A DNA stretch of 64,000 nucleotides from a virus (taxonomy: Duplodnaviria > Heunggongvirae > Uroviricota > Caudoviricetes), in IMG/VR virus record IMGVR_UViG_2690316121_000006; one strand, given 5' to 3'. Of this stretch, positions 21,037 through 21,846 are shown one piece after another (position 1 is the stretch's first letter; the number at the start of each line of letters is the position of its first letter). The notes beneath the pieces were generated by a model, which saw only the letters and a program-made list of their open reading frames with translations, did no database searches and had not been told where the DNA came from. The position numbers and the translations under genes were made by a program.

Positions 21037-21846
21037 ATGCAAGAAGAGAAACAACACTACCTCTACGTTCTGGTGCCGGAGAACGGAGATACTTTTAAAA
21101 TCGGCATTTCATGTGGTCCATTGGCACGGTTTAAAGGGCTACAAGTGAGTCCCGATTTTGCGCTTTCACGGGTCTATCGTGGTACGCGTTTGGCAATGGT
21201 TAATCTTGAGCGGGCTTTACACGCAACCTTTTTCCCCTGGAATGCGCCGTGGGAGAAAAGCGCCGGTGGCGGGCATACTGAATGGTTTACACGAGAGTGT
21301 CTTGATAAGGTTTTGGCTCATATCGAATATCTAAATGATATGTGGGGAGGGATTCTCGAGCGAATTAAGTCGAATGATTTACTTCAGCGTCCAGTAGATG
21401 CTGCTCGCTCTTTCGAAAAAGAACTGGATGTTACTTCTATCGTGACTTTCAAAGATGACGCAGGAATGAGGGATGTGGCTTATGTCTCCATATCTGGCTA
21501 TGAACCTGACGCGATCCGCGCTCAATGTGAATTGCTGAAAGCGATGTTTACGCTTCGGACTAAATATCCCTGGGAGACAGGGCGGGTGTGCTTCCCTATG
21601 GAAGAGTTAACCGCCATCATTGATTCCCAGCTTTACCACGATAATCCAGAGAAGTTTTTTAGCCTTTTAGCTGGTAATGGGCTTAACTGTGTGTCCGGAC
21701 TGGGGCGAAGTAGAATCCAACATGCCTCGCTCTTCGGTCCCTTCTTTTACGATCGAAACGGGTGCTTTGAGGCTGAACTTCCGGCGCTAACGCGTGCTAT
21801 AGATACTATCGATTTCGAACGATTATTCGCAGCTCTTAACAAATAA
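21037..21846 (+). CDS. T5orf172/GIY-YIG-like domain protein
   Basis: N-terminal YLYVLVPENGDTFKIGIS...LERALH...GGHTEWF matches the T5orf172 (Mug113-like) pattern; 269 aa. Confidence 0.5.
   Translation: MQEEKQHYLYVLVPENGDTFKIGISCGPLARFKGLQVSPDFALSRVYRGTRLAMVNLERALHATFFPWNAPWEKSAGGGHTEWFTRECLDKVLAHIEYLNDMWGGILERIKSNDLLQRPVDAARSFEKELDVTSIVTFKDDAGMRDVAYVSISGYEPDAIRAQCELLKAMFTLRTKYPWETGRVCFPMEELTAIIDSQLYHDNPEKFFSLLAGNGLNCVSGLGRSRIQHASLFGPFFYDRNGCFEAELPALTRAIDTIDFERLFAALNK

Follow-up and report, generated by a model that had tools for sequence, protein, structure and literature searches.

A T5orf172/GIY-YIG nuclease-like gene at the right end of the p0111 replicon cassette in a P1-like phage-plasmid

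Introduction

E. coli and Salmonella frequently harbour P1-like phage-plasmids, which often have resistance genes (ESBL or mcr) aboard. The DNA considered here, a stretch of 64,000 nucleotides that is termed the window, is by nucleotide comparison a P1-like phage-plasmid of the RCS47/SJ46/pO111_2 type (the "p0111" replicon), with positions 19800–23300 being 98–99% identical to phages RCS47, SJ46, phi456, JL22 and others. Between its replication gene repA and its partition gene parA lies an open reading frame (ORF) for a protein of the T5orf172 group, which is a subfamily of the GIY-YIG nucleases. The locus raises the question of what a nuclease-like gene does at the junction of replication and partition, and whether it belongs to plasmid biology or defence, as the initial annotation proposed, or simply rides with the replicon. 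IncY and p0111 are the two main replicon types among P1-like phage-plasmids, and all that has been said of their origin so far is that repA and "an unknown gene" were replaced (PMC9603915).

Elsewhere in the window, two segments (48246–51988 and 60796–61479) have no megablast match to P1 1–48000 and lie between flanks that are collinear at 94–98%; by position they correspond to the tail-fibre/invertible C-segment region and the P1 isaA-IS1-isaB area. The window also contains seven matches to the operator consensus of the P1 C1 repressor, where 0.3 would be expected by chance, and these include an overlapping inverted pair at 13781–13808 and a site at 17314–17330, plus five other sites. In the same consensus scan none was found within 3.7 kb of the T5orf172 ORF. 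A search of positions 19000–22500 for Rfam families returned none.

The gene and its flanking signals

The ORF occupies 21037–21846 on the plus strand (the stop codon included), begins with ATG and encodes a two-domain T5orf172 nuclease-like protein of 269 aa. The T5orf172-type motifs by which the initial annotation recognised the N-terminus of the protein are all present, as K21-I-G-I-S25, L57-E-R-A-L-H62 and H80-T-E-W-F84, and the domain search that it recommended bears out the assignment, with Pfam T5orf172 (PF10544) matching residues 8–85 at 27.5 bits against a curated cut-off of 20. The three other full-length lineages of the family, described below, score 25.1–27.8 bits with the same model. 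A Pfam match to MUG113 falls under its cut-off, and the NCBIfam profiles give no match. Within PHROGs, phrog_2876 (function unknown) spans residues 1–269 of 269 with an E-value of 1e-190 and phrog_681, a phage "endonuclease" family, matches the N-terminal 100 residues with an E-value of 5e-9.

The ORF is real, was correctly described and is already annotated in public records, with the RefSeq product name being "GIY-YIG nuclease family protein". PLSDB holds 401 records with the ORF at 95% identity or more, chiefly from E. coli and to a lesser extent from Salmonella, Shigella, E. albertii and E. fergusonii. A literature search found no published functional study of the ORF. The record of phage phi456 (OR339795.1, positions 1238–2047) names the same gene 'terminase small subunit', a name that finds no support here.

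The gene was also said to be followed by its own terminator. A hairpin and T-run that resemble an intrinsic terminator are indeed present at 21854–21874 (plus strand), recognised by consensus match and folding energy, and are best described as a putative terminator. The hairpin starts 8 nt past the stop codon, has a 5-bp G+C stem (GCCCC/GGGGC, 21854–21868) followed by TTTTTT, and folds with -11.9 kcal/mol (z = -2.8 against shuffled sequences). A comparable hairpin and T-run follow the homologue in a further locus (L006). Upstream, the stretch from the last iteron to the ATG has no sigma-70 consensus promoter in any of the four lineages, and a strong ribosome-binding site is not evident. In GC content the ORF does not differ from the window mean, and its composition hence gives no hint of recent import.

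The predicted protein

The protein was modelled with AlphaFold2 from five aligned sequences, a shallow alignment, giving a mean pLDDT of 73 and thus moderate confidence; a model from three sequences (pLDDT 61) was set aside as too poor. The N-terminal T5orf172/GIY-YIG catalytic domain, or head, covers residues 1–105 (21037–21351, plus strand; about 1–104 in the model) and is predicted to have the GIY-YIG alpha/beta fold. Residues 106–128 (21352–21420, plus strand) appear to form a flexible linker, which has a pLDDT of 43–53 in both AlphaFold models and is rich in indels in the family alignment. The remainder, residues 129–269 (21421–21843, plus strand), is predicted to be a winged-helix-like domain, a helix-turn-helix with a beta-hairpin wing, and is a putative DNA-targeting module. 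The model is therefore one of a nuclease domain tethered to a separate domain that would be expected to bind DNA.

The score, the core motif and the predicted fold of the head place the protein in the T5orf172/GIY-YIG family, whose nuclease activity it would presumably share. Residues Y10, K21, G23, R31 and E82 are invariant across the four lineages. In a wider set of 108 head homologues G23, R31, E58 and E82 are invariant and Y10, K21, S44, H62, G79, T81 and F84 are at least 90% conserved, and the window protein keeps every one of these residues. R31 and E82 align with the Arg and Glu of the ICP1 protein Odn, which were inferred to be catalytic by alignment with characterised GIY-YIG nucleases (PMC8263062). 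Foldseek against BFVD matches T5orf172 proteins, among them ICP1 ORF88 (Odn). A conserved Cys cluster is absent from the ORF product.

The tail is more elusive. Pfam gives no match to the tail alone, and neither the whole protein nor the tail profile has a sequence relative of solved structure in the PDB. Its best-ranked Foldseek matches in the PDB are RctB, RepE54 and pPS10 RepA, with non-significant E-values of 0.06–0.9. These best fold matches are the WH1 domains of iteron-binding Rep initiators and the tail may thus be Rep-like, although the scores are modest and the sequence lends no support. A profile comparison of the tail with either its cognate RepA family or the Rep3 fusions P0044 and P0015 (see below) gives a probability of less than 1%. 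The idea that it is a recent copy of the plasmid's own RepA was dropped on the comparison with the RepA family.

The replicon cassette

The replicon starts with five origin iterons at 19678–19778 (plus strand), which are TTGACTATACGCGA-like, have a spacing of 21–22 bp and are the counterpart of P1 incC/oriR. They are followed by repA (19860–20744, plus strand), which encodes a 294-aa 'p0111'-type initiator of the P1 RepA family that is 42% identical to P1 RepA and carries the RefSeq label 'RepB family plasmid replication initiator protein'. On the 3' side of repA is an incA-like iteron array (20745–21007, with no strand assigned) of two direct copies (20745–20784) and four inverted copies (20862–21007), and the ATG of the T5orf172 ORF stands 33 nt past the end of the last of these. 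The order of iterons, repA and iterons mirrors the incC-repA-incA arrangement of P1, with an iteron sequence that is unrelated to that of P1. A thirteenth iteron copy, TTGACTATAAGCGA with one mismatch, is located within the repA coding sequence at 20464–20477 and is oriented like the origin iterons.

When the window is compared with P1 by blastn, the homology on the left (94.7%) stops at 19653, in oriR just ahead of the iterons, and on the right (99.2%) restarts at 21913, just upstream of the par promoter, thereby delimiting a replicon cassette of 2.26 kb unlike P1 at 19654–21912 (no strand). The T5orf172 ORF and its terminator-like hairpin form the right end of this cassette, which replaces the iterons, repA and incA of P1. 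This is a new finding. Outside the cassette are the P1-identical par promoter region, parA and parB (21913–24229, plus strand), with parA at 22015–23211 and parB at 23228–24229, both on the plus strand and encoding products that are 100% identical to P1 ParA and ParB. The placement of the ORF between repA and parA is therefore as first reported. No remnant of the ORF was detected by tblastn in the 170-bp spacer between incA and Ppar of P1.

The IncY P1-like plasmids constitute two classes, one with P1 par and the other with a P7-like par (ParA of 401 aa and ParB of 321 aa). In the IncY plasmids examined (L009 and L010), P1 homology ends exactly where the last incA iteron ends (P1 61487), and hence the junction of replication and partition is a recombination seam in general, also where the ORF is absent.

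Lineages, conserved placement and cassette swaps

The family was searched for by exhaustive HMMER over 1.84 billion representatives and by two word-index searches, in which only four full-length lineages were found. These are the window type, P0004 (44% identical to the window type), P0009 from Salmonella (28%) and P0011 from a faecal metagenome (25–30%, according to the alignment method). A further cluster of 168 aa, P0003, was considered as an N-terminally disrupted allele and rejected, its representative lying at a contig end and probably being an assembly artefact. All four full-length lineages have the order repA-iterons-ORF-parA-parB in a P1-like element, and in all four the ATG is 22–33 nt past the last inverted iteron, despite the presence of three unrelated iteron sequences among them.

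A second exchange of the cassette is seen between two P1-like elements, one from a Logan assembly (L001, ERR2144811) and the other from Salmonella (L004/L005, GCA_007478465.1). Their flanks are 94–99% identical in nucleotides, and between them lie unrelated replicon cassettes, p0111-like in the former and IncY-like in the latter, each with its own T5orf172 gene. The RepA proteins are 41% and the ORF products 29% identical, and the swap ends 63–84 nt past the ORF stop. The RepA of L004 is 83% identical to that of P1, so that IncY-like replicons can carry such a gene too. Two independent cassette swaps, window against P1 and L001 against L004, therefore have the T5orf172 ORF as their right edge. 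As an argument that the gene marks the boundary of a recombination tract this is confounded, since the right edge of the cassette is also the start of the conserved par promoter, which is the same point in P1 where the ORF is lacking.

The ORF, and above all its tail, evolves much faster than the neighbouring genes. Between the window and L001 the identity is 84% for RepA, 89% for ParA, 64% for the head of the ORF and only 31% for its tail, and this in two elements with nearly the same iterons. Against six other alleles, the window has 15–18 nucleotide differences in the tail (21352–21846), 0–3 in the head (21037–21351) and 1–5 in the upstream intergenic iteron region, and this concentration of differences in the tail suggests a recombination breakpoint near the boundary of the two domains. 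The tail allele of the window is a minority type, with 11 of the 401 PLSDB records being at least 99% identical to it.

The restricted placement of the gene bears on the possibility of a role in defence, where the protein would be an infection-activated nuclease that degrades invader or host DNA and is carried as accessory cargo against phages (or plasmids). GIY-YIG/T5orf172 nuclease domains serve as effectors in conflict systems and phage-plasmids carry much defence cargo, and the ORF, being accessory and maintained, would suit such a role. However, it occurs solely at a single fixed junction within one plasmid family rather than in defence islands, its neighbours are repA and parA with no partner sensor gene, and neither a C1 operator nor another infection-linked signal lies near it. 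The defence models of PADLOC-DB 2.0 likewise returned 0 families at an E-value of 1 or lower. A defence effector is considered improbable.

Dispensability and selection

Complete iteron-repA-iteron replicons exist without the ORF, while the IncY-like replicon of L004 has it. The ORF is absent from P1, from P7-type IncY plasmids, where parA starts 113 nt past incA, and from CP042620.1 (3990–6371), a p0111-related replicon whose RepA is about 85% identical and which has the full 5+2+4 set of iterons. The CP042620.1 replicon sits in a different phage-like backbone, adjoining tail genes, and has no parA beside it. Practically every PLSDB record of the p0111 type has the ORF and repA together (401 with the ORF against 399 with repA and iterons), and a near-identical 'empty site' allele of this cassette did not turn up among them. 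Ongoing homing is for this reason not visible in the present collection.

The gene has also been interrupted on separate occasions. The nonsense allele S112* (TCG to TAG) occurs in plasmids of the pO111_2 type, in 12 of 400 PLSDB records (position 2835 of pO111_2, NC_013370.1), with the codon being intact in the other 388 (about 97%). A second nonsense allele, Q228*, is present at codon 228 in Salmonella phage SJ46, and the two are independent. The ORF is thus dispensable for plasmid maintenance. A gene with a core role in replication or partition should be present wherever the replicon is and never be lost, and both the replicons that lack the ORF and the persistence of the nonsense alleles argue against such a role. 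Between the window and pO111_2, the ORF has a pN/pS of 0.16, compared with 0.05 in repA and 0 in parA. With this ratio and with nonsense alleles in the minority, the ORF is accessory but mostly under purifying selection.

These data help in judging two further explanations. The first is that the protein has been domesticated as a regulator with little or no cutting activity, which would bind near incA or the par promoter and tune copy number, handcuffing or par expression. There is a precedent in CapR, a relative of the T5orf172 homing genes that has been domesticated as a PLE repressor, as summarised in PMC10448857, and the position of the ORF, flanked by the par promoter and by copy-control iterons that its ATG abuts, would be apt for such a function. 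Yet the Arg and Glu aligned with catalytic residues and the conserved motifs of the head are invariant across lineages that are just 25–44% identical, which a pure DNA binder would not need. P1 and P7, moreover, do without the ORF in regulating the same par operon and IncY replicon, and the S112* allele removes the tail without the plasmid lineage having been lost. Such a regulator is quite improbable. The second explanation, which is very unlikely, is that the ORF is a relic, left over from the insertion of a homing gene long ago, which has no function and just hitch-hikes with the replicon. The two nonsense alleles, the want of an evident promoter or strong ribosome-binding site and the absence of the gene from P1 and P7 would all agree with decay. 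They have to be set against an ORF that is intact in four lineages diverged to 25–44% identity, with conserved catalytic residues, a pN/pS of about 0.16 and S112* in just 12 of the 400 records.

Relatives fused to Rep3 domains

Among homologues of the head, the commonest partner domain detected by Pfam is Rep3_N, the WH1 domain of initiators, and in other homologues the partner is an HTH, winged-HTH or zinc-finger domain of one kind or another. A RepA-family HMM did not single out the Rep3-bearing relatives of the head. Two uncharacterised metagenomic fusions, P0015 (T5orf172 and Rep3_N by Pfam) and P0044 (T5orf172, Rep3_N and Rep3_C), are the nearest relatives of the head and have the same domain order as the window protein.

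The gene for P0044 lies on an ENA metagenome scaffold of 58.9 kb (L012, 4617–7293), where three 32-bp iterons are followed by a Rep3 initiator gene and then, 20 nt on, by the fusion. The Rep part of P0044 (WH1 and WH2) is 47% identical to the DNA-binding half of the neighbouring initiator (E 7e-64); the last 37 or so residues of the two proteins are almost identical, and the last 165 nt are 85% identical in DNA. Like the window ORF, the P0044 gene thus comes immediately behind a rep gene and iterons. By its layout, a fusion gene directly behind a rep gene, this locus appears to represent a recurring arrangement that the window shares. The tails themselves differ. Those of P0044 and P0015 are recognisable to Pfam as Rep3_N or Rep3_C whereas that of the window protein is a sequence orphan, and where the P0044 tail is a paralogue of the adjacent Rep, the window tail has no detectable similarity to its own RepA.

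The gene for P0015 is found on an ENA contig of 1968 bp (L013, 104–1771) and is followed 75 nt later by a separate Rep3_C protein of 191 aa. This pair could be a split or frameshifted form of the L012 fusion.

Proposed function

The preferred reading, to which we give a probability of about 0.4, is that the ORF product is a sequence-targeted endonuclease of the free-standing GIY-YIG homing type and a passenger of the replicon cassette, and we infer its activity, target, homing and regulation as follows. The head (1–105) would be catalytic, the linker flexible and the winged-helix tail (129–269) responsible for targeting DNA. The gene would be an optional passenger at the junction of replication and partition, inherited and exchanged together with the iteron-repA-iteron cassette. 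On meeting a related element that lacks the gene, the tail would dock at or beside the terminal incA-type iteron and the tethered head would cut some 20–30 bp off, roughly at the gene's own insertion point. Repair from the gene-carrying copy would then spread the gene along with nearby replicon markers. The carrier itself would be immune, its cleavage site having been replaced by the insertion. Transcription probably starts in, or reads through, the RepA-bound iteron array, as the ATG is just 22–33 nt past the last iteron and no consensus promoter fits this gap, and expression would accordingly be low and tied to RepA occupancy.

The PF10544 score, the retention of the conserved residues, the Rep3 fusions, the fixed junction, the two swaps, the fast-evolving tail and the dispensability of the gene are all counted in favour of this reading. 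Counted against it are the lack of a close empty-site allele, the intact S112 codon in 388 of 400 records and the pN/pS of about 0.16. Taken together, the intactness of the ORF and this ratio point rather to a useful function kept by selection than to the decay of a homing gene once fixed. The 31% tail identity of the window and L001 in the face of shared iterons is also awkward if the tail reads the iteron. The confounded right boundary and the lack of an identified promoter are further points on this side.

It is the purifying selection that the main rival accounts for better. Here the protein would be an exclusion nuclease, the tail of which reads the origin, the iterons or another signature of a rival (for instance an IncY plasmid of the P1/P7 type, which shares the same par and immunity functions) while the head destroys that rival with no gene conversion involved. 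A p0111-type plasmid would in this way gain an edge in plasmid-plasmid or phage-plasmid competition. A direct precedent is the Odn protein of phage ICP1 (Gp88), in which T5orf172 is fused to a RepA_N domain copied from the initiator of the PLE satellite and which cuts the satellite origin in an iteron-dependent manner, an E180A mutant being inactive (PMC8263062). The heads of the two proteins match structurally, the tail is like Rep-WH1 by fold and Rep3 fusions are found among its relatives. Purifying selection on an ORF that about 97% of the plasmids keep intact would fit a useful weapon, and a fast-evolving tail would fit an arms race. On the other hand, the Rep domain of Odn is clearly homologous in sequence to the RepA of its target, and no such homology is detectable between the window tail and any Rep. 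The exclusion nuclease also has no target that can be named, and the constant spacing of 22–33 nt after the carrier's own last iteron is left unexplained by a weapon that is directed outwards. All in all it is judged unlikely.

The homing-type reading and its main rival may be combined in a broader proposal, which at present is doubtful. In this the Rep-like tail would settle on the terminal copy-control iteron of a co-resident phage-plasmid and the head would break the rep/par junction, thereby driving replacement of the cassette (IncY to p0111 and others), with the T5orf172-Rep fusions beside rep genes forming a widespread selfish class of origin-homing nucleases.

The roles in defence and regulation and the relic are less well supported than either the homing-type or the exclusion reading. 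Of the role originally suggested for the gene, in plasmid biology or defence rather than virion production, the exclusion of virion production holds, and neither a core plasmid function nor defence is borne out. A homing-type nuclease, or one for competition between elements, that rides with the cassette is a better fit than either of these.

If the protein is a nuclease acting at the rep/par junction, it would provide a mechanism for the swapping of modules and for competition between co-infecting phage-plasmids, many of which carry resistance genes. The idea of nucleases that borrow the initiator fold would then extend from ICP1 and PLE in Vibrio to ordinary enterobacterial plasmids. If the gene is a mere passenger, the practical value lies in better annotation, as the phage record with the small terminase subunit illustrates.

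Comparison with known systems

The protein is best filed with the T5orf172 homing-type nucleases, having a distinctive conserved placement and a tail that is perhaps Rep-like, and is not categorically new. What is new here is the position at the right end of the cassette, the junction kept in four lineages, the two-domain model with a Rep-WH1-like tail, the Rep3-fused relatives and the dispensability of the gene.

The T5orf172 genes of ICP1, T5-like and many other phages, taken to be homing endonucleases of the free-standing kind, cluster near essential genes, have modular recombining DNA-binding domains and occur at the boundaries of genetic exchange (PMC10448857). The window protein likewise has a terminal T5orf172 domain and a separate putative DNA-binding module. 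Its gene adjoins essential replication genes at the limit between exchanged and conserved sequence, and the putative DNA-binding part is modular and fast evolving, with a probable recombination breakpoint near the domain boundary. The phage genes differ in that 87% of them use CapR/DUF723/DUF4397 zinc-finger modules (PMC10448857), instead of the predicted winged-helix tail, and in that they reside in gene clusters of lytic phages rather than in the replicon of a plasmid prophage. Among the close relatives of the window ORF, moreover, neither homing nor an empty-site polymorphism is seen.

With Odn the protein shares the combination of a T5orf172 nuclease and a replication-initiator-type domain, here at the level of fold, as well as the link to iteron-bearing origins and a structurally matching head. 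The order is reversed, however, since in Odn the RepA_N domain is N-terminal and the nuclease C-terminal. The RepA_N-family domain of Odn is 42% identical to the RepA of its target, so that its DNA-binding domain is a sequence homologue of the iteron-binding domain of an initiator, whereas the window tail is without sequence similarity to any Rep and resembles a WH1 of the Rep3 type at the fold level only. Odn is also encoded by an enemy of its target and the window ORF by the replicon itself.

The overall architecture, finally, is that of I-TevI and the T4 Seg endonucleases, which at about 250 aa similarly consist of an N-terminal catalytic domain of about 100 aa, a flexible linker and a C-terminal DNA-binding domain. 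That I-TevI binds in one place and cuts a fixed distance away is established, as cited in PMC8263062, and the same logic is proposed for the window protein. It differs from these enzymes in its DNA-binding domain, in having no associated intron or documented marker exclusion, and in the K21-I-G of the T5orf172 type that takes the place of Y-I-G.
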